Positions 995 to 30,920 of a stretch of DNA of 30,920 nt are shown here, piece by piece. A program made the translations under genes and the position numbers. The stretch lies in the IMG/VR virus record IMGVR_UViG_3300045988_121797; one strand, written 5' to 3'. How positions within the stretch are numbered: position 1 is the first letter of the stretch; every line of letters begins with the position of its first letter. This DNA is from a virus. Under the pieces are notes generated by a model. The model was not told where the DNA came from. It made no database searches and saw nothing but the letters and a program-made list of their open reading frames with translations.

Positions 995-997
995 TAA

Positions 998-1073
998 GGC
1001 TTTTGCTTATAACGAGGATAGAGCTACGCAGAGGTGCGACTCGAGCGCGTTATAAGATTTTAGCATAAGGGAA
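998..1073 (+). repeat. 76-bp element, copy A. Its direct-repeat partner is at 27358-27433 (74/76 identical).
   Basis: Manual alignment gives ggcttttgcttataacgaggatagagc[t/a]acgcagaggtgcgactcgagcgcgttat[a/g]agattttagcataagggaa. There is an internal 9-bp inverted repeat, cttataacg/cgttataag. Confidence 0.9.
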
Positions 1074-11376: not shown

Positions 11377-13566
11377 ATGGCAAGTATTTTTTCGCTTTTC
11401 GGTACTATCTTTATTGACAATGCAGAGGCTGATAAAAGTATCGACACGACAACCGAAAAGGCGGAAAAGAGCGGCTCAAAGGTAGGCTCCGCTTTCTCCT
11501 CTATTGCAAAGGGTGCCGCCGCTATGGGAGCGGCGGTTATAACGGGAGCCGCGGCTGTCGGTACAGCCGCTTACGGTATGGCAATGAAAACAGCCGAGCA
11601 AGCCGATTATATCGACAAGCTCTCCGAGAGAACGGGAATAAACCGCGAGGAGCTGCAACGGTGGAAACACGCCGCCGACCAAAGCGGCGTTAGTGTTGAC
11701 TCTTTCAAAAACGGTATTAAAAAAATGTCTGATGTTGTGGACGACGCAAACAACGGCTCCAAAACAGCAGCAACAGCTATAGAGCGTTTGGGGCTATCCC
11801 TGGACGACCTTAACGCTATGTCAACCGAGGAAAAGTTTAACACCATTACCGCAGCTCTTGCGGATATGGAGGACGGCGCAGAGCGTAACGCCCTGGGTAA
11901 CGACCTCCTCGGAAAAAGCTATACCGAAATGCTACCGCTGCTTAACGCAGGCTCCGAGGGTATGGCGGCTCTAAAGAAAGAGGCGGACGACCTCGGTATA
12001 GTTATGTCGGAGAACACCGTAAAAGCGGGCGTAGTCCTCGGAGATACGATAGCAAACATTAAGGACGCTTTCGGCGGGCTTATGAACAGAATAGGCGCGG
12101 CGGCAATTCCGCTTATACAAAAAGTCGCCGATATGATAATAGCGGGACTCCCTAAAATTCAAGCCTTATTTGATAGGCTGATACCCGTTATTACAAGTAT
12201 TTTCGAGCAGCTTTTACCGCCTTTGTTTACGCTGATTGAAACGCTATTTCCCGTCCTTATGGATTTAGTAACGGCTCTGCTGCCTCCTATTGAGTCGATT
12301 ATTACGGCAATTCTGCCCGTTATAATCAGCCTATTTCAGCAGCTCCTACCGTTCCTTATCCAAATTATAGAGCAAGTGCTCCCTATAGTGGTTGACCTAA
12401 TTAACGGGCTTATGCCGCTTGTTATGCAGATTATAAATACGGTACTACCTATCCTTATTCAGCTAATACAAGCGATTTTACCGCCTATCTTGCAAATTAT
12501 CCAGGCTATACTCCCCGTTGTAATTCAGCTTTTGCAGATGTTACTACCGCCTATTTTGCAGATAGTAAATACCATTTTGCCCGTAATTATAAACCTTATC
12601 AACCTTATTTTGCCGTTGGTGGTACGCATTATCGAGGCTATTTTGCCCGTGATTATTCAGTTAATCGAAATGCTATTGCCTCCGATTTTGCAAATTATAG
12701 ACCAGGTATTACCTATCCTCTTAAAGTTAATCGAAACTATCGTACCTATCGCTATACAGATAATCGAGGCTATTTTGCCAGTGGTTATCTCGCTGCTTGA
12801 CGCGCTCTTGCCCGTTATTCAGCCGATACTCGATATTTTAATGGTGCTGTTAGAGCCTCTCCTGGACTTACTCAACCTCATTTTACCGCCGTTGTGCGAC
12901 TTTATTAAAATGCTGTTTGACAAGCTCTTACCGCCCCTGCAAAAGGCTTTCTCGGGCGTAGCGGATATTGTCGGCGGCGTTTTCAAAAACGCCTTTGAGG
13001 GCATTAAAAAGGTTTTCGAGAATGTCAAGGGAATTTTCCAGGGTATTATCGACTTTGTTAAAAATGTCTTTACGGGTAATTGGCGCGGAGCCTGGGACGC
13101 AGTAGTAAGTATTTTCAAGAATATTTTTGAGGGTATCAAAAACGCCTTTAAGGTGCCTATAAATTGGATAATTGACGGTATAAATGTTTTTATCCGAGGG
13201 CTTAACAAGCTAAAAATACCCGATTGGGTACCAGGCGTAGGCGGTTTAGGACTCAATATTAAGGAACTCTCCCGCCTCCGTATCGGTATGGAGTATGTAC
13301 CTTATGACGAGTACCCCGCGTTGCTCCACAAGGGCGAGCGCGTATTGACCGCAGGCGAAAACAAGGAATACTCCGCCGCTATGTCTGCGGCGGCAGCAGG
13401 CGACGACAAAGAGGGACGGCTCGTTATCAAAATCGAGCTCGGCGAAAAGGCTATTTACATTGAAAACCTCAAAGGCGACAGCGAGCAAGATGTAGAGAAC
13501 TTTGTTGACCTCTTGTTAGAGCTTATAGCCGAGAAAATCCAAAGAAAGGGAGTTGTATTTGCATAA
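11377..13566 (+). CDS. Tape measure protein
   Basis: 729 aa, the longest helical ORF, located after the G/GT pair. It has a central hydrophobic repeat block. Confidence 0.9.
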   Translation: MASIFSLFGTIFIDNAEADKSIDTTTEKAEKSGSKVGSAFSSIAKGAAAMGAAVITGAAAVGTAAYGMAMKTAEQADYIDKLSERTGINREELQRWKHAADQSGVSVDSFKNGIKKMSDVVDDANNGSKTAATAIERLGLSLDDLNAMSTEEKFNTITAALADMEDGAERNALGNDLLGKSYTEMLPLLNAGSEGMAALKKEADDLGIVMSENTVKAGVVLGDTIANIKDAFGGLMNRIGAAAIPLIQKVADMIIAGLPKIQALFDRLIPVITSIFEQLLPPLFTLIETLFPVLMDLVTALLPPIESIITAILPVIISLFQQLLPFLIQIIEQVLPIVVDLINGLMPLVMQIINTVLPILIQLIQAILPPILQIIQAILPVVIQLLQMLLPPILQIVNTILPVIINLINLILPLVVRIIEAILPVIIQLIEMLLPPILQIIDQVLPILLKLIETIVPIAIQIIEAILPVVISLLDALLPVIQPILDILMVLLEPLLDLLNLILPPLCDFIKMLFDKLLPPLQKAFSGVADIVGGVFKNAFEGIKKVFENVKGIFQGIIDFVKNVFTGNWRGAWDAVVSIFKNIFEGIKNAFKVPINWIIDGINVFIRGLNKLKIPDWVPGVGGLGLNIKELSRLRIGMEYVPYDEYPALLHKGERVLTAGENKEYSAAMSAAAAGDDKEGRLVIKIELGEKAIYIENLKGDSEQDVENFVDLLLELIAEKIQRKGVVFA
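12178..12945 (+). repeat. Coding tandem repeat with a 33-nt (11-residue) period, inside the tape measure
   Basis: About 20 in-phase units of x-L-P-x-[IVL]-x-x-[LI]-[IV]-x-x, for example ILPVIIQLIEM LLPPILQIIDQ VLPILLKLIET. Confidence 0.85.
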
Positions 13567-18631: not shown

Positions 18632-20335
18632 ATGGAAATTAGGCAAAAACTTTCTCTCGATTTTGGCAGAGATACGCACCCTATTACGGTATTTGCAAAG
18701 CAGAACGACACAAAAACCCGTTTTCTTGAAATTACCCCGCTTAATTGCGGGCAGGCTTACGCTATCGAGGACGGCGTAACGCCCCGCTTGCAGCTTACCA
18801 AAGCTGACGGGCATACCGTACTCAATGACGCAACCGTAGAAAACGGCGTTATCGTTGTCGAACTGACACCGCAGGCACTCGCAGCCGCAGGCGTGGCGGT
18901 TGCCGAAATCGGACTTTATAAGGGCGAGGCTCTCTTGAGCTCGCAAATTTTCTATATTGATGTGGAGCGGGCGGCTTTTGATAAAGACGCACCCGCAAGC
19001 TCCGACGAGTTTAACGCTCTTACCGCTGCTCTTGCGGAGGTTAATACCGTAGCAGAGAGAGCGGCTACTATTGCCTCGGAAATTGCAAACGAGGCAGCAG
19101 ACAACGCCAACGGCGCAGCCGAGGGCGCGGAAAAGGTTAATATTTCAGCGGTGCAGACCGAAACGGGCGCGACTATCAGCGTAACCGACAGAGAGGGTAC
19201 TGTAACCACCGTACATATTGACACGCTTACAGCGGTTAATACCTGGGAGGATATTAAAAACGCCGTCCGCCTCGGACTCGGTGCAAAACTATTTCCCGTT
19301 GGTTACGAGTTTACAACCGAGGACGCTACTACGGGAGCGGTTATTACCTGGGTTGTACGCGACCACGACAAGCACGCAGCGGCAAACGGTAAGCTCGCTC
19401 ACAGTATGACGCTCGAGGCAAAGTATGTATACAGCAACAGCGCGGGCACCTACTTAACCCTCGTATTTGACGCATACGAGGCACTTTACTACGCAGCCGA
19501 GGAAATCCCCGCAGGCACTTATAATTTTACCTGGAATTATGCTACGGGCAGTATGGTAAACGGTACCTATCAATTTACATTGACAAAAGCGGTACCCGCA
19601 GGCGGGCAAATTGTGCTCGGTACTAACTCGAGCTCTACCGCAATTACGGGCTGCAAGATTGCGACTTACGCTACCGTGGCGGCTACTGCTGCTATTGAGA
19701 GCGGTATTGTTGTTACAGAGGGCTCGGAGGGTACAAGCCTCGGCACCATTGCCGCGACATCTGCCACAAGCGAAAACCTTAATTGCGCTCAACGCATTAT
19801 GTGGGGCTCCAACAACTACGCACAGAGCGCGGCTCGTCAATGGCTCAACAGCGACGCAGCGGCGGGCTCCGTGTGGACTCCTACAAACAAATTTGACCGC
19901 GCCCCGTCCTGGGCTACCTCTAAAGCGGGCTTTATGAAAGGCTTACCCGCCGACTTTTTGGCAGCGGTACAGCCTGCGGCTATTCCTTGCCGCACTAACT
20001 CCGTATTTGAGGTAAACAGCCTCGACGGTACCGAGTATACCGTAAACACGGTATACACCTTAAACGATATGTTTTTTATGCTCTCTCGTCCCGAAATATA
20101 CGGCTCTTGGGACAGCTCCTCCATTAAAGACGGCGAGCTGTTGGAGTATTACGAGGGCTTAACCGATATTGAGCGTATCAAATATGACGCGGCGGGCTCG
20201 GCGCGTAACTGTTGGCTCCGATCCCCTTACCCTGGGTACGCGGGCAGCGAGCGCATTGTGAACACCTCGGGAGCGTTGGGCCACGGCAGCGCGATTATCG
20301 GTAACGGAGTCGCCCCCGCTTGTATAATCGCATAA
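18632..20335 (+). CDS. DGR target protein 1: BppU_N-like N-terminus, coiled coil, and a C-type-lectin-fold C-terminus carrying VR1
   Basis: 567 aa. The N-terminus resembles the baseplate upper protein Ig-like domain. The C-terminus NCWLRSPYPGYAGSERIVNTSGALGHGSAIIGNGVAPACIIA aligns to TR. Confidence 0.85.
   Translation: MEIRQKLSLDFGRDTHPITVFAKQNDTKTRFLEITPLNCGQAYAIEDGVTPRLQLTKADGHTVLNDATVENGVIVVELTPQALAAAGVAVAEIGLYKGEALLSSQIFYIDVERAAFDKDAPASSDEFNALTAALAEVNTVAERAATIASEIANEAADNANGAAEGAEKVNISAVQTETGATISVTDREGTVTTVHIDTLTAVNTWEDIKNAVRLGLGAKLFPVGYEFTTEDATTGAVITWVVRDHDKHAAANGKLAHSMTLEAKYVYSNSAGTYLTLVFDAYEALYYAAEEIPAGTYNFTWNYATGSMVNGTYQFTLTKAVPAGGQIVLGTNSSSTAITGCKIATYATVAATAAIESGIVVTEGSEGTSLGTIAATSATSENLNCAQRIMWGSNNYAQSAARQWLNSDAAAGSVWTPTNKFDRAPSWATSKAGFMKGLPADFLAAVQPAAIPCRTNSVFEVNSLDGTEYTVNTVYTLNDMFFMLSRPEIYGSWDSSSIKDGELLEYYEGLTDIERIKYDAAGSARNCWLRSPYPGYAGSERIVNTSGALGHGSAIIGNGVAPACIIA
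20195..20323 (+). repeat. DGR variable region VR1
   Basis: Gap-free 129-nt alignment to TR 20809-20937 with 15 differences. Fourteen are at TR adenines and one is a silent T/A. Confidence 0.9.
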
Positions 20336-20343
20336 TCTAAAAT

Positions 20344-20361
20344 CCGCCTCGGTAGAGGCGG
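20344..20361 (+). promoter_or_regulatory. GC-rich hairpin downstream of VR1 (candidate DGR target-recognition hairpin/cruciform)
   Basis: ccgcctc-GGTA-gaggcgg: a 7-bp stem with a 4-nt loop, 20 nt after the end of VR/TR homology. Confidence 0.6.
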
Positions 20362-20379
20362 TAAAAAGGAGGTTTTAAT

Positions 20380-20790
20380 ATGAGCGTTAGAAAAGGCGAC
20401 AGAGGCGAGGGCAAGCTGCAAGTGCTTAATAAAGCTCGAGAGCTTAAAAAGTATTCATTAGCAGCACTCAAAAACGAGAAACACTTTCCAAAAAGTACCC
20501 GTTGGCTTTATGCCTCGCCGATTGCTACAGAGGTACGCGAGGCGTGTATTTGCATACGGCACGCTAACTCGGTATATGTAACCAACGCCGAGGAGCACAG
20601 CTACCGCCGTATGGAGCAAGTAAAGGCGCACGCACACCTCGACGCTCTATTAGACCTTATCGACGACGCATACGACGCGGGCTATATTTCGGGTGATAAA
20701 GCGGAGTTTTGGACGGGGTTAATACTCAAGACAGACGACCTATTAAAAGCCTGGATAAAGTCCGACAAAGAAAAATACAAAGATATGTAG
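20380..20790 (+). CDS. avd: DGR accessory variability determinant (Avd-like four-helix-bundle protein)
   Basis: 136 aa, basic and helical, located between VR and TR exactly as in BPP-1. SD aaaggagg lies upstream. Confidence 0.75.
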   Translation: MSVRKGDRGEGKLQVLNKARELKKYSLAALKNEKHFPKSTRWLYASPIATEVREACICIRHANSVYVTNAEEHSYRRMEQVKAHAHLDALLDLIDDAYDAGYISGDKAEFWTGLILKTDDLLKAWIKSDKEKYKDM

Positions 20791-20808
20791 GGCGGTTGCT
20801 ATATTTTC

Positions 20809-20937
20809 GGCTCGGCGCGTAACTGTTGGCTCCGTTCCCCTAACCCTGGGAACGCGAACAACGAGCGCAATGTGAACACCTCGGGAGCGTTGAACAACAA
20901 CAACGCGATTAACGGTAACGGAGTCGCCCCCGATTGT
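20809..20937 (+). repeat. DGR template repeat (TR)
   Basis: Its position is non-coding, 18 nt after the avd stop. It is rich in AAC (aac aac aac aac) and homologous to VR1 and to VR2 (from 20842). Confidence 0.9.
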
Positions 20938-21024
20938 GAGAATAGCCCGTATCAAGTAGTCAATAGACCAAAGCAGCGCAGCTCACACAAGGAGCGACCG
21001 TCCTACCTCCGAAAGGAGGGAATA

Positions 21025-22149
21025 TTGCGGGCGACAAAGGTACCTTACGGGGTAGTCCTTTTATATGCGTCCGCCTACTTTATTATGTCATACGAACAAG
21101 TAATATCTTTTGACAACCTCTACAAGGGGTTAAAACAAAGCTGCCGTAATATCCGTTGGAAAGATAGTACCGTAGGCTATGAGGGCAACGCCCTAAAGAA
21201 TACTTACCGCTTACGAGAAAGCCTCTTGAGCGGCAAATACAAAATAGATAGGCACCAACACTTTACCATATACGAGCCGAAACGCCGCGACATTGTGGCG
21301 ACCAGGTTAAAAGACCGACAATTTCAACGCTCGCTATGTGATAACGGACTTTATGAGCAGATAACGAAATCGTTTATAACTGATAATTGCGCCTGCCTGC
21401 GCGGGCGTGGAGTCGATTATACCCTAAACCGTATCACGGCGCATTTACGCCGTTATTATAAAGCTCACGGCTGCGACGGGTGGGTGCTCAAGTGTGATAT
21501 ACACCACTATTTCCCGAGCATACGCCACGACATAGCAAAGGCTGCAATATGTAAGCGGGTTAAAGACGCTCAAATAGCGGCGCACGCCTGCGACATTGTA
21601 GACTCTTTCGGCGGTGATGTTGGTATAGGGCTCGGCTCCCAGGTATCGCAGCTTGTAGCTCTTGCCGTCCTGGACGACCTCGACCACTTTATAAAAGAGC
21701 GGCTCCGAGTCAAGCACTATATACGATATATGGACGATTTTATACTAATCCACGAGGACAAGGAATTTTTGCAGCATTGCCGCGTGGAGATAGAAAAGCA
21801 AGTAAACGCTATCGGGCTTGAGCTCAACGGCAAAACTACTCTCTATCCTCTCCGCCAGGGCGTAAAAATGTTGCAATGGCGTTTTATCGTTACCGACTCG
21901 GGAGCGATTATACGCAAAATGGGTAAAAAGAAACAAGGCAAGCAACGCCGCAAGCTCAAAAAGCTATACGCTAAAGAGCAGAGCGGCGACTATGCGCCAG
22001 GGACGGCTCACGAGTCCCTCGTTTCTTGGCTTGCAAACGCTGCCCGAGGAGATACCTACCACGAGCGGCGGAAAATGATAAATTTCTATAAAGAATTGGA
22101 GGGCTCTTATCGTGAAAAACAATTACCACAAACGCCTCGCCCAGGTTGA
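21025..22149 (+). CDS. DGR reverse transcriptase
   Basis: Motif C IRYMDDFILIH, the DGR-type IGLGSQVSQ motif, and an N-terminal FDNLYKGLKQS region. TTG at 21025 has SD aaggaggg 5 nt upstream. ATG at 21085 is an alternative. The track start at 20872 lies inside TR. Confidence 0.9.
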   Translation: MRATKVPYGVVLLYASAYFIMSYEQVISFDNLYKGLKQSCRNIRWKDSTVGYEGNALKNTYRLRESLLSGKYKIDRHQHFTIYEPKRRDIVATRLKDRQFQRSLCDNGLYEQITKSFITDNCACLRGRGVDYTLNRITAHLRRYYKAHGCDGWVLKCDIHHYFPSIRHDIAKAAICKRVKDAQIAAHACDIVDSFGGDVGIGLGSQVSQLVALAVLDDLDHFIKERLRVKHYIRYMDDFILIHEDKEFLQHCRVEIEKQVNAIGLELNGKTTLYPLRQGVKMLQWRFIVTDSGAIIRKMGKKKQGKQRRKLKKLYAKEQSGDYAPGTAHESLVSWLANAARGDTYHERRKMINFYKELEGSYREKQLPQTPRPG

Positions 22150-26150: not shown

Positions 26151-26187
26151 GAGAGGGAGCGTAACGGCTCCCTCTCTTTGTCTTTTT
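26151..26187 (+). terminator. Strong rho-independent terminator
   Basis: gagagggagc-gtaacg-gctccctctc forms a perfect 10-bp stem, followed by tttgtcttttt. Confidence 0.8.
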
Positions 26188-26213
26188 ATATGATAAAACG
26201 GAGTGATTTTATT

Positions 26214-27251
26214 ATGGCATACAAACATTTAACCTTTAACGACAGATTAAAAATTGAGGCTTGGCAAAAGGTAGGTACCTCCCCTCGAGTAATGGCTGAA
26301 AAGCTCGGCGTACATATCAGCACTATTTATAGAGAGCTCAAGCGCGGACAGTATGAGCACCTTAATTCCGATTATACCACCGAGCAGAGATACAGCCCCG
26401 ATATTGCCGAGGAGAAAAACCAGGCTAACCTACGCGCTAAAGGTGCGCCGCTTAAAATCGGCTCCGACCACGAGTACGCGCAGTATATCGAGTATAAAAT
26501 AAGAGTAGAGAAATACTCTCCCCGCGCCGTCCTGGGCGAAATCAAACGCCAGGGCGTAGAGTTTAGTACGAGCATATCGGCTCCGACTCTGTACCGCTAT
26601 ATCGAGCAGGGCGTTTTCCTCACTATCACAAACGACAATTTACCTGTTAAGAGAAATAAGAGCACCCGCAAATATAAGAAAGTGAGAGCGGCTCGCGCCT
26701 CCAAAGGTGAGAGCATAGAAAAACGCCCCGCAGAGATTGCGGAGCGTAACACTTTCGGACATTGGGAAATGGATTGCGTAGAGGGCAAGAAAGGCACTAA
26801 AAAAACTATGCTCGTATTGACCGAGCGTTATACCCGCTACGAGATTATCCGCATTATGAAAGACCACACCGCCGCAAGCGTCGTAAAAGCCCTTAACGGT
26901 ATCGAGCGGGCATACGGCGCAGACTTTTATAAAATCTTTCAAAGTATCACCATAGACAACGGCTCCGAGTTTTCCGATTATGAGGGACTCGAGCAGAGCT
27001 GCCGCCGCGTCGGCACCCGTACAAAGGTATATTACTGCCACCCGTACAGCTCATACGAGCGCGGCTCAAATGAAAATCAAAATAAAATGATACGCCGCCA
27101 CTACCCGAAAGGCGTTAGCTTTGAGCGGGTAACGCCTGCCGACACACGCAGGCTTGAAAAGTGGATAAACAATTATCCGAGAGGGATTTTTAACTATTTT
27201 ACCTCCGCAGACCTCTACGAGGCGTGCGTAAATAGCCTTTTATCTGCCTAA
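26214..27251 (+). CDS. IS30-family DDE transposase
   Basis: 345 aa. N-terminal HTH LTFNDRLKIEAWQKVGTSPRVMAEKLGVHISTIYRELKRG. Catalytic core HWEMDCVEG...ITIDNGSEFSDY...SYERGSNENQNKMIRR. Confidence 0.9.
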   Translation: MAYKHLTFNDRLKIEAWQKVGTSPRVMAEKLGVHISTIYRELKRGQYEHLNSDYTTEQRYSPDIAEEKNQANLRAKGAPLKIGSDHEYAQYIEYKIRVEKYSPRAVLGEIKRQGVEFSTSISAPTLYRYIEQGVFLTITNDNLPVKRNKSTRKYKKVRAARASKGESIEKRPAEIAERNTFGHWEMDCVEGKKGTKKTMLVLTERYTRYEIIRIMKDHTAASVVKALNGIERAYGADFYKIFQSITIDNGSEFSDYEGLEQSCRRVGTRTKVYYCHPYSSYERGSNENQNKMIRRHYPKGVSFERVTPADTRRLEKWINNYPRGIFNYFTSADLYEACVNSLLSA

Positions 27252-27314: not shown

Positions 27315-27355
27315 AAGTGCGAAAGGTTTTTTAAGACCTAACGCACTTATTTTTT
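27312..27355 (+). terminator. Rho-independent terminator overlapping the -10 of the candidate promoter
   Basis: aataagtgcg (27312-27321) pairs with cgcacttatt (27342-27351). An inner aggt/acct pair extends the structure, and a T run follows. Confidence 0.65.
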
Positions 27356-27357
27356 AT

Positions 27358-27433
27358 GGCTTTTGCTTATAACGAGGATAGAGCAACGCAGAGGTGCGAC
27401 TCGAGCGCGTTATGAGATTTTAGCATAAGGGAA
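27358..27433 (+). repeat. 76-bp element, copy B (partner of 998-1073)
   Basis: 74/76 identical to copy A; mismatches are at 27385 and 27414. Confidence 0.9.
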
Positions 27434-29175: not shown

Positions 29176-29865
29176 ATGAATAGCAGCATTTTAACCGCTA
29201 TTGAGTCCCTATGCGACGATATAGCAACCAACACCAACCCAGAGGAAAACAAGAAAAGAGCCGAGGCGGTTGTTTCTCTTGCCTTTGCGGGCATTTTTAC
29301 ACCCGCAGAATATGACGACGAATACGAGGACGAAAGCTCCGAGGGTGAAGCGGCACCCGTTGCAGATGTGAGCAAGGTACCGCAGGCGGGCGAGCGTTTT
29401 ACCCGTGGCGGTATTGAGTTTGTCGCTCTCGGTATGGAGCAAGGCGGCGTACTTGCCGTAGCTGCAAAACGACTCGAGGACGAAATGGCATACGACGAGG
29501 ACGGCTCCAACGATTGGCGCAAATCCTCTCTCCGTAAATACCTCAACGAGGAGTTTGTAAAGAATTTCGATAAAGGCGACCTCCTCCCGTTTGTTTCCGA
29601 CCTCACCTCCGACGACGGTATGACCGACTACGGCACCTCCGAGGACTTTGTGGCGTTGCTTTCGGACAACCTTTACCGCAAGTACCGTAAGTTTATGCCT
29701 AAATATGATACCTGGGTATGGACTATTACTCCCTGGAGCTGCCTCCCTGGGAACGCGAGCAGCGAGCGCTATGTGAACACCTCGGGAGCGTTGAACGGCA
29801 ACTACGCGATTTACGGTTACGGAGTCGCCCCCGCTTGTATTTTTAATCCCGAAATCTTTAAGTAA
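29176..29865 (+). CDS. DGR target protein 2 (remote): acidic N-terminus plus a C-type-lectin-like C-terminal domain carrying VR2
   Basis: 229 aa. WRKSSLRKYLNEEF, then WSCLPGNASSERYVNTSGALNGNYAIYGYGVAPACIF aligned to TR. No signal peptide or TM segment is seen. Confidence 0.8.
   Translation: MNSSILTAIESLCDDIATNTNPEENKKRAEAVVSLAFAGIFTPAEYDDEYEDESSEGEAAPVADVSKVPQAGERFTRGGIEFVALGMEQGGVLAVAAKRLEDEMAYDEDGSNDWRKSSLRKYLNEEFVKNFDKGDLLPFVSDLTSDDGMTDYGTSEDFVALLSDNLYRKYRKFMPKYDTWVWTITPWSCLPGNASSERYVNTSGALNGNYAIYGYGVAPACIFNPEIFK
29743..29838 (+). repeat. DGR variable region VR2
   Basis: Gap-free 96-nt alignment to TR 20842-20937 with 11 differences, all at TR adenines. Confidence 0.88.
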
Positions 29866-29868
29866 TCT

Positions 29869-29882
29869 GCGCCGATAGGCGC
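29869..29882 (+). promoter_or_regulatory. GC-rich hairpin downstream of VR2 (candidate DGR target-recognition hairpin)
   Basis: gcgcc-GATA-ggcgc: a 5-bp stem plus one T-G wobble, with a 4-nt loop. It starts 30 nt after the end of VR2. Confidence 0.5.
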
Positions 29883-30767: not shown

Positions 30768-30920
30768 ATGGATTTTCAGCAGCTTAACGAGGCTTTAATG
30801 AACGGATAGCCCGTAGAGCATAACGGTATCGTTTATAAATGTGTTTCGGCTATTATCAAGCGAAACAAGAACGGGAAACCCGTATACACCGCAGAGCTCA
30901 CAGATAGAAATAACAACAGC
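30768..30920 (+). pseudogene. Junction-spanning small ORF interrupted by one in-frame TAG (30807-30809)
   Basis: SD aaggag lies 8 nt upstream of the ATG at 30768. MDFQQLNEALMNG-TAG-PVEHNGIVYKCVSAIIKRNKNGKPVYTAELTDRNNNS... stays open to the window end and continues at 56-100. Confidence 0.35.
30866..30920. repeat. Terminal direct repeat, partner of 1-55
   Basis: Exact 55-nt identity with the window start. Confidence 0.95.

Follow-up and report, generated by a model that had tools for sequence, protein, structure and literature searches.

A very probably active diversity-generating retroelement with two targets in a temperate gut phage

The IMG/VR virus record IMGVR_UViG_3300045988_121797 (30,920 nt; hereafter the window, meaning this whole stretch of DNA) encodes, in succession, a tail-fibre protein, an accessory variability determinant (Avd), a non-coding template repeat (TR), and a reverse transcriptase (RT). 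This arrangement raises the question of whether the locus is a functional diversity-generating retroelement (DGR), the remnant of one, or a chance association of repeats with an RT of another kind, and, if functional, which proteins it diversifies. An earlier note on this DNA had described the locus as a complete DGR that rewrites the tip of a single fibre-like protein. Our analyses support that interpretation in substance and extend it to a second target. Collectively, they indicate that this gut phage very probably encodes a complete, currently active DGR that acts on two genes (Table 1).

Adenine-specific differences between one template and two variable repeats

TR aligned without gaps over 129 nt to a first variable repeat (VR1) near the 3' end of the large target gene, and 14 of the 15 mismatches fell on TR adenines, reproducing the count reported earlier. 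Given that adenines comprise 24.8% of TR (32 positions), the probability that at least 14 of 15 mismatches would fall on adenines by chance is 3.9e-8. Nine of the 12 AAC codons in TR were altered in VR1, AAT was changed to ATT, and GAT was changed to GCT, such that the codon changes previously listed are correct. VR1 is in frame and C-terminal, as had been proposed. However, it does not comprise the literal last 43 codons of the 567-codon open reading frame (ORF), since three additional codons (IIA) separate it from the stop codon. TR begins 18 nt past the avd stop codon (TAG, 20788-20790), as previously noted. The mutable TR adenines are in codons AAC (12), AAT, GAG, ACC, ATT, and GGA, and their placement is such that no substitution at a TR adenine can create a stop codon. 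The number of possible protein variants is ~1.2e17 for VR1 and ~8.3e15 for the second variable repeat described below.

The single mismatch that did not involve a TR adenine was a T (TR 20835) to A (VR1 20221) difference. While this difference is present in the window, three closely related contigs (L001, L002, and L004) all encode a T at this position, like TR. Contig L001, from a sister sample, is identical to the window over 16.9 kb except for this T and has the same second variable repeat. The T/A difference is therefore private to the window assembly.

The earlier note recognized one target, and this aspect of its interpretation did not hold. A second variable repeat (VR2) was identified 9 kb away in the gene for a 229-residue protein with a DUF6273 domain. 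VR2 is templated by TR 20842-20937, and all 11 of its mismatches to TR fell on TR adenines. Its gene is located between genes for a cytosine methylase and an SLT transglycosylase, outside of the tail module. In both targets the variable repeat is C-terminal (residues 522-564 of 567 and 190-221 of 229). The small target belongs to a cluster of 283 members at 90% identity, and a homologue search added hundreds of further clusters. Among 86 distinct full-length variants of this protein, codons whose first or second position is a TR adenine had an entropy of 2.44 bits, compared to 0.10 bits for the remaining VR codons and 0.14 bits for residues outside of the VR.

Alternatively, VR1 might be the sole true target, with VR2 being a partial copy of the fibre tip that has ceased to be rewritten and is decaying. 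VR2 is shorter than VR1 (96 vs 129 nt), is 9 kb distant and outside of the tail module, and precedes a hairpin with a stem of 5 bp. Nevertheless, every difference between VR2 and TR is on an adenine, the exact 3' boundary sequence of VR1 is present in VR2, and variability among the 86 variants is confined to A-templated codons. Further, VR2 DNA copies in eight other contigs were variable at A sites, and the few non-A differences in these copies matched changes in known variant TRs. A remote second variable repeat was also detected in several contigs that encode relatives of the RT (L125, L122, L118, L146, L025, and L145), and relatives at 50-71% RT identity retain a remote repeat with its hairpin. 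We consider decay of VR2 to be highly improbable when compared to ongoing diversification of both targets from one template.

The location of the small target gene allows for the tentative suggestion, which we consider doubtful but not far-fetched, that its product is not a tail component but a ligand-binding protein deployed on its own, for instance as a virion decoration or as a factor that the lysogen produces. If true, one template would co-diversify two functionally different binding proteins, and the retention of paired large and small targets in relatives with as little as ~50% RT identity would imply that the pairing is itself under selection.

The 3' ends of both variable repeats have features of recognized DGR target sites. 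VR1 and VR2 share the 3' end GGAGTCGCCCCCG-CTTGT-AT, whereas TR has GGAGTCGCCCCCG-ATTGT-GA; the TR version of this segment, which resembles an initiation of mutagenic homing (IMH) sequence, is GATTGTGA and differs from the VRs identically in all copies. Specifically, where TR has an adenine at 20933, all VR1 and VR2 copies examined have a C, and the same holds for most relatives with RT identities as low as 50% (GATTG in TR vs GCTTG in VR); the corresponding residue 220 of the small target is an invariant Ala. Because the same change is found in every VR copy and residue 220 does not vary, the A-to-C difference at TR 20933 did not arise through mutagenesis but is a fixed difference of the IMH/IMH* kind that marks the TR/VR boundary. 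Thus, the 14 differences previously attributed to TR adenines are on adenines, but not all of them are mutagenic, since one of them is this fixed boundary marker.

Homing in phage BPP-1 requires a DGR hairpin with a 7-10 bp GC stem and a GRNA loop located 4-34 bp after the VR (PMC3240598). GC-rich hairpins were identified 20 nt past the end of TR homology at VR1 and 30 nt past it at VR2. In this family, a hairpin with a 4-nt loop is found 19-30 nt after nearly every VR, its stems covary, and its loops are mostly G-N-T-A; the remote VRs of L125, L122, L118, and L146 are followed by a hairpin of the same kind. Both VRs therefore combine the published target-recognition features, namely a GC-rich, IMH-type end that differs from TR and a downstream GRNA-loop hairpin. 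The possibility that the VR1 hairpin is a transcription terminator for the fibre gene on the + strand was also considered but was ruled out, as no T-run follows the hairpin.

To evaluate variation among closely related phages, contigs for comparison were identified via the exact Avd protein; a search of IMG/VR for exact matches to the full TR pattern with masked adenines returned none. Contig L002 differed from the window at 23 of 11,576 bases. Of these, 18 were within the 129-nt VR1 and 5 were in the other 11.4 kb, while TR was identical in the window, L001, and L002. Contig L004 encoded yet another version of VR1. Among these near-identical genomes, VR1 differed at A-templated sites only. 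These observations uphold the prediction in the earlier note that variation would be limited to A-templated sites with TR invariant, here through comparison of independent assemblies. Near-isogenic phage genomes from different samples thus differ almost solely in their two variable repeats, which makes them a clean natural example of a working DGR.

In contig L003, which is 96% identical to the window, TR has four non-A substitutions, each of which recurs in the VR1 of the same contig, and the 15 TR/VR mismatches are without exception on adenines. Because this VR1 shares the non-A substitutions of the L003 TR, information flowed from TR to VR after the L003 and window lineages split. More broadly, relatives with an RT identity of 80% or more provided 27 distinct TR/VR1 pairs, in which mismatches were detected at 45.2% of A sites and at 1.07% of non-A sites. 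Substitutions in these pairs comprised A to G (147), A to T (138), and A to C (105). About 100 of the 164 contigs with a relative of the RT encode a TR just upstream of it along with an A-mismatched VR. Separately, the TR of L003 (1810-1937, Logan ERR13801246) was observed to have one C fewer in a CCCCC run than its own VR1 and all other TRs, a discrepancy that is either an artifact of assembly or a genuine loss of 1 nt at the GC-rich boundary.

These comparisons bear on whether the locus is a fossil, that is, a DGR with all of its parts present that no longer functions and whose TR/VR differences are old. Past and present activity are inseparable from a single genome, and the window and its sister-sample contig L001 share both VR1 (except for position 20221) and VR2. 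However, the concentration of differences between L002 and the window in VR1 and the transfer into the VR1 of L003 after TR divergence are at odds with a fossil. Likewise, the catalytic motifs, all RNA helices, and the hairpins (see below) are intact and conserved, and hundreds of distinct variants of the small target exist. We therefore regard a fossil element as very unlikely and favor a DGR that is still rewriting its targets.

Table 1. Positions of the components of the retroelement in the window and the properties by which each was recognized.
Feature	Position	Strand	Properties
Target gene 1, 567-residue tail-fibre/baseplate protein	18632-20335	+	N-terminal BppU_N (Pfam E 3.4e-11), C-terminal DUF6273 (E 2.6e-15)
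VR1	20195-20323	+	Variable repeat, residues 522-564 of target 1
IMH-like 3' end of VR1	20306-20325	+	GC-rich GGAGTCGCCCCCG then CTTGT-AT; C20319 is the fixed difference from TR A20933
GC-rich hairpin/cruciform after VR1	20344-20361	+	7-bp stem CCGCCTC/GAGGCGG, loop GGTA
avd, accessory variability determinant	20380-20790	+	136 residues; PHROG 3206 'Avd protein of DGR' E 3.6e-28, full length
Upstream strand of TR-bracketing duplex	20787-20800	+	GUAGGGCGGUUGCU; pairs with 20993-21006 over 14 bp
TR	20809-20937	+	Template repeat, 129 nt, non-coding
Spacer RNA, TR to RT	20938-21084	+	147 nt; fold prediction and covariation
Spacer small hairpin	20959-20968	+	Predicted fold
Spacer primer strand	20982-20990	+	Invariant motif CAAGGA at 20988-20993
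Spacer duplex strand	20993-21006	+	Partner of 20787-20800
GAAA-tetraloop hairpin	21007-21018	+	CCUCC-GAAA-GGAGG, then AA; predicted fold and covariation
Long RT-proximal stem	21027-21074	+	Ends just before RT start; predicted fold and covariation
DGR reverse transcriptase	21085-22149	+	354 residues from ATG 21085; Pfam RVT_1; PHROG 1423 E 1.8e-104
Target gene 2	29176-29865	+	229 residues; helical, acidic N-terminal part then DUF6273 (Pfam E 4.7e-9); PHROG 9958 (unknown function)
VR2	29743-29838	+	Variable repeat, residues 190-221 of target 2
GC-rich hairpin after VR2	29869-29882	+	5-bp stem GCGCC/GGCGC, loop GATA

Proteins of the element and the RNA that flanks the template repeat

The ORF downstream of TR had been proposed to encode a DGR RT based on its YMDD and GLGSQVSQ motifs. 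Both motifs are present, and both align with those of the BPP-1 RT (bRT): IGLGSQVSQ (IGxxxSQ) and RYMDD (YMDD). The best relative in the PDB was 8ub7 (E 8.5e-22, 81 bits; query residues 4-324 vs bRT 10-312). This entry is a 328-residue chain labelled 'Reverse transcriptase', which we take to be the DGR RT of BPP-1 from the cryo-electron microscopy (cryo-EM) study. The next PDB matches, to group II intron RTs, retron-type RTs, and Drt3a, were at most 3.5e-7 in strength. The RT belongs to a 90% identity cluster of 485 members.

A competing explanation is that the RT belongs to another class (group II intron, retron, Abi, or DRT) and that the repeats are unrelated, paralogous C-terminal domains kept alike by recombination. 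Weak matches to NCBIfam models of such classes were indeed recovered, but scores were far below the respective cut-offs for the group II intron maturase TIGR04416 (68.9 vs 300 bits), Drt3a (49.1 vs 200 bits), retron St85 (39.5 vs 235 bits), and AbiA (15.4 vs 250 bits). Similarly, PADLOC assigned a generic RT along with weak DRT models, with DRT matches of at most 63 bits. A search of the whole window against Rfam 15 at gathering thresholds yielded zero matches to an intron, a retron, or any other RNA family, while the DGR RT of BPP-1 is the best solved relative by a wide margin. Further, TR is non-coding, and recombination would not confine differences to the adenines of one copy. Given these results, we attach almost no weight to an RT of another class and retain the assignment to the DGR RTs.

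The start of the RT is most likely ATG 21085, which fits the N-terminus of bRT. We place the start here because the AGGAGG upstream of a competing start, TTG 21025, lies within a conserved hairpin and because 1-nt indels in two relatives break the TTG frame. TTG 21025, chosen by gene callers (374-residue RT), was rejected: its AGGAGG is the 3' arm of the conserved GAAA-tetraloop hairpin, AGGAGG and TTG together being located within window 21006-21027, and it is out of frame with the RT in contigs L090 and L009. A GTG start at 20872 (425-residue ORF) was also rejected, as it overlaps TR.

The 136-residue basic, helical ORF that had been suggested to encode Avd is confirmed as such by its match to PHROG 3206 and by an AlphaFold model that forms a four-helix bundle (predicted local distance difference test [pLDDT] score of 81). 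The best fold matches of this model were to the S23-family structure 2rld (TM 0.74/0.89) and to 2gsc, with BPP-1 Avd (4dwl) at rank 16. Avd has been described as S23-like, with which the four-helix-bundle model agrees (bioRxiv 10.1101/2023.10.23.563531). A match to YopO from a search of the PDB with the Avd sequence was judged to be spurious.

The BppU_N-like domain previously noted in the large target was recovered with Pfam, and the BppU_N and DUF6273 matches both exceed curated cut-offs. The large target was also affiliated with PHROG 19280 and, at its N-terminus, with tail-fibre families. Published models describe DUF6273 as C-lectin-like (PMC10743442). Membership in DUF6273 together with those models suggests that the VR-bearing domain of the targets may adopt a C-type-lectin fold.

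The RNA fold was predicted on 20780-21100, and covariation was evaluated on an alignment of 26 relatives, with slid partners and 500 shuffles as controls. The upstream strand of the duplex that brackets TR comprises the end of avd plus 10 nt. Changes on both sides were detected in 12 of the 14 pairs of this duplex, 93% of its cells were paired, and the same long-range pairing was found in relatives with quite different sequences. Across all helices, 93.6% of cells were paired (39-49% in slid controls), changes on both sides were detected in 35 of the 44 pairs (13-19 in slid controls), and 205 cells were compensatory (23-36 in slid controls); none of the 500 shuffles reached the observed values. 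CAAGGA in the primer strand and GAUU at the TR 3' end (20932-20935) were invariant in relatives. This covarying, TR-flanking RNA (20780-21084) is without a matching Rfam family.

In the DGR RNA of BPP-1, as resolved by cryo-EM, a template:primer duplex extends to the adenosine from which synthesis is primed and is followed by two unpaired nucleotides and then by a duplex of avd and spacer, at which the polymerase is stopped. A short hairpin with a tetraloop comes next, with adenosines after it, and then a long stem to which RT binds (bioRxiv 10.1101/2023.10.23.563531). The 20787-20800:20993-21006 duplex matches the avd:Sp 'cPRT Stop' duplex of BPP-1 and appears to be its counterpart.

By analogy with BPP-1, the element would function as follows. 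The avd-TR-spacer-RT region would be transcribed, and the RNA would fold such that the 14-bp duplex (20787-20800 and 20993-21006) brackets TR and the spacer strand 20982-20990 forms a duplex with UUGUGAG (20934-20940) at the 3' end of TR. A20990 of CAAGGA, corresponding to BPP-1 Sp A56, would then prime cDNA synthesis in cis by an RT-Avd complex at approximately TR 20933/20934, a start that would explain why position 20933 is never transferred. Synthesis would proceed back through TR, with random misincorporation opposite adenines, and would halt before the bracketing duplex, a few nt upstream of TR 20809. The mutagenized cDNA may then replace VR1, at the tip of the BppU_N/DUF6273 fibre, or VR2, at the tip of the small DUF6273 protein. 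Homing would be guided by the shared GC-rich 3' end and by the GC-rich, GRNA-loop hairpin after each VR, and TR itself would never be altered.

Several points weigh against this reading of the locus, in whole or in part. VR variation was compared between assemblies from different samples, rather than among reads within one population. The stem of the VR2 hairpin, at 5 bp, is below the published range of 7-10 bp. Avd matched the NCBIfam model DivGenRetAVD with an E value of only 2e-4 and 21.5 bits, compared to a cut-off of 80 bits. ATG 21085 is without an obvious Shine-Dalgarno sequence, whereas TTG 21025 has one, such that the assigned start rests on frame conservation and RNA structure. The position at which cDNA synthesis starts is ambiguous, as two registers of TR:spacer pairing are both supported by covariation. 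Finally, the C-type-lectin fold of the VR-bearing domain is unconfirmed: a structure prediction of the small target from a 26-sequence alignment had a pLDDT of 62.6 (below 50 over the VR), a fold search with it was uninformative, and no useful sequence relatives of the targets were recovered from the PDB with the large target as a single sequence or the small target as a profile.

Phage genome and host

Bases 1-55 of the window are identical to bases 30866-30920, as revealed by a repeat search, and the contig is therefore a circularly assembled genome of 30,865 bp. Copies with 92-99% RT identity are located in 90-157-kb contigs of Clostridia and Acutalibacteraceae metagenome-assembled genomes (MAGs). 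The location of close copies within bacterial contigs indicates that this 30.9-kb siphovirus-like phage is temperate and that its host is among gut Clostridia of the Acutalibacteraceae type. A nucleotide search of GenBank phages returned just two weak, partial matches, and no tRNAs were detected in the window.

The genome encodes an SLT protein, a rolling-circle-type Rep, dUTPase, terminase, portal, protease, major head protein, a tail module, and lysis genes, along with an IS30-type DDE recombinase, a methylase, and the small target. Genes for the tape measure, Dit, Tal, and a DUF859 tail protein are located 5' of the large target, and those for a tail-fibre assembly chaperone (Phage_tail_APC), a holin (Holin_SPP1), and an endolysin (Amidase_2) are located 3' of the RT. 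The sole recombinase found was the IS30-type DDE protein (HTH_38 and rve; window 26178-27251), with no tyrosine or serine integrase; despite this, close copies of the phage reside in the bacterial MAG contigs described above.

Two further sets of repeats were also observed. A 79-nt direct repeat with 96% identity is present at window positions 995-1073 and 27355-27433, with a 9-bp inverted repeat (CTTATAACG...CGTTATAAG) inside each copy. One copy is 5' of the Rep gene and the other is 5' of the HTH_38 gene, and together they flank a ~4.4-kb block (methylase, VR2 target gene, and SLT) across the circle junction. These repeats could have arisen by duplication of a regulatory or origin region, or could mark the ends of a cassette. 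In addition, a repeat of ~38 nt is present in five copies with 61-71% identity within the tape-measure gene (window 12212-13081) and probably reflects internal protein repeats.

Comparison with known systems

The element is an ordinary, complete, and active phage DGR of a well-known kind, and knowledge of DGRs is unchanged by it. The earlier note had likened the order of its components to that of BPP-1, and this is borne out: mtd-avd-TR-brt in BPP-1 is mirrored here by target-avd-TR-spacer RNA-RT. The two systems also share a four-helix-bundle Avd, a non-coding and AAC-rich TR, a GC-rich, IMH-like 3' boundary with fixed TR/VR differences, and a GRNA-loop hairpin after each VR, and the RT of BPP-1 is the closest solved relative. 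Similarity extends to the layout of the RNA, with its template:primer duplex, bracketing duplex, tetraloop hairpin followed by adenosines, and long RT-proximal stem.

Differences from BPP-1 are nevertheless evident. There are two targets here rather than one, and they are DUF6273 proteins and not homologues of Mtd, to which neither the single-sequence nor the profile search of the PDB linked them; the targets work like Mtd but are outside of the Mtd family. In BPP-1, the bracketing duplex comprises 11 bp and its upstream strand is wholly inside avd; here, the duplex comprises 14 bp and this strand takes in the avd stop codon plus 10 non-coding nt. The adjacent hairpin has a 4-5 bp stem and a GAAA loop, rather than a 2-bp stem and a UNCG loop. 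The RT is distant in sequence (81 bits), and the host is a Gram-positive gut anaerobe.

Gut phages with two-target DUF6273 DGRs have been described, including the Faecalibacterium phages Lelie and CP11 (PMC11792537) and the phages nd4 and nd12 (PMC10743442). As in these phages, one TR serves a large and a small target, both with DUF6273, and the VR is at the C-terminal end of DUF6273. RT identity is 42% with nd12 and 37% with Lelie. However, the 53-kb genome of Lelie contains baseplate J-type (myovirus-like) genes and is arranged differently around the RT. In the 'tentaclins' of nd4 and nd12, the VR is in an N-terminal C-lectin domain that is followed by Ig domains, whereas here both VRs are C-terminal, and the large target, with its BppU_N anchor, yielded no Ig or Fn3 match in Pfam. 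The small target also differs from those of the other two-target gut phages in that its gene is 9 kb distant from the cassette and is surrounded by genes for methylase, DNA-binding, and transglycosylase proteins.

Metagenome surveys have recovered ~31,000 DGRs, as cited in bioRxiv 10.1101/2023.10.23.563531. Relative to metagenomic DGRs with remote targets, the present element is alike in being phage-borne, from the gut, Avd-containing, and directed at a tail fibre; it does not differ in kind and represents one more lineage, found in many assemblies. This lineage is common in gut metagenomes, as evinced by the sizes of the RT and small-target clusters, and could be used to determine read-level diversification rates and to address why a phage would co-diversify a small, possibly non-tail protein with its fibre. 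It also provides independent covariation support, from a lineage of phages of Gram-positive gut hosts, for an RNA architecture that has been structurally defined only in BPP-1.

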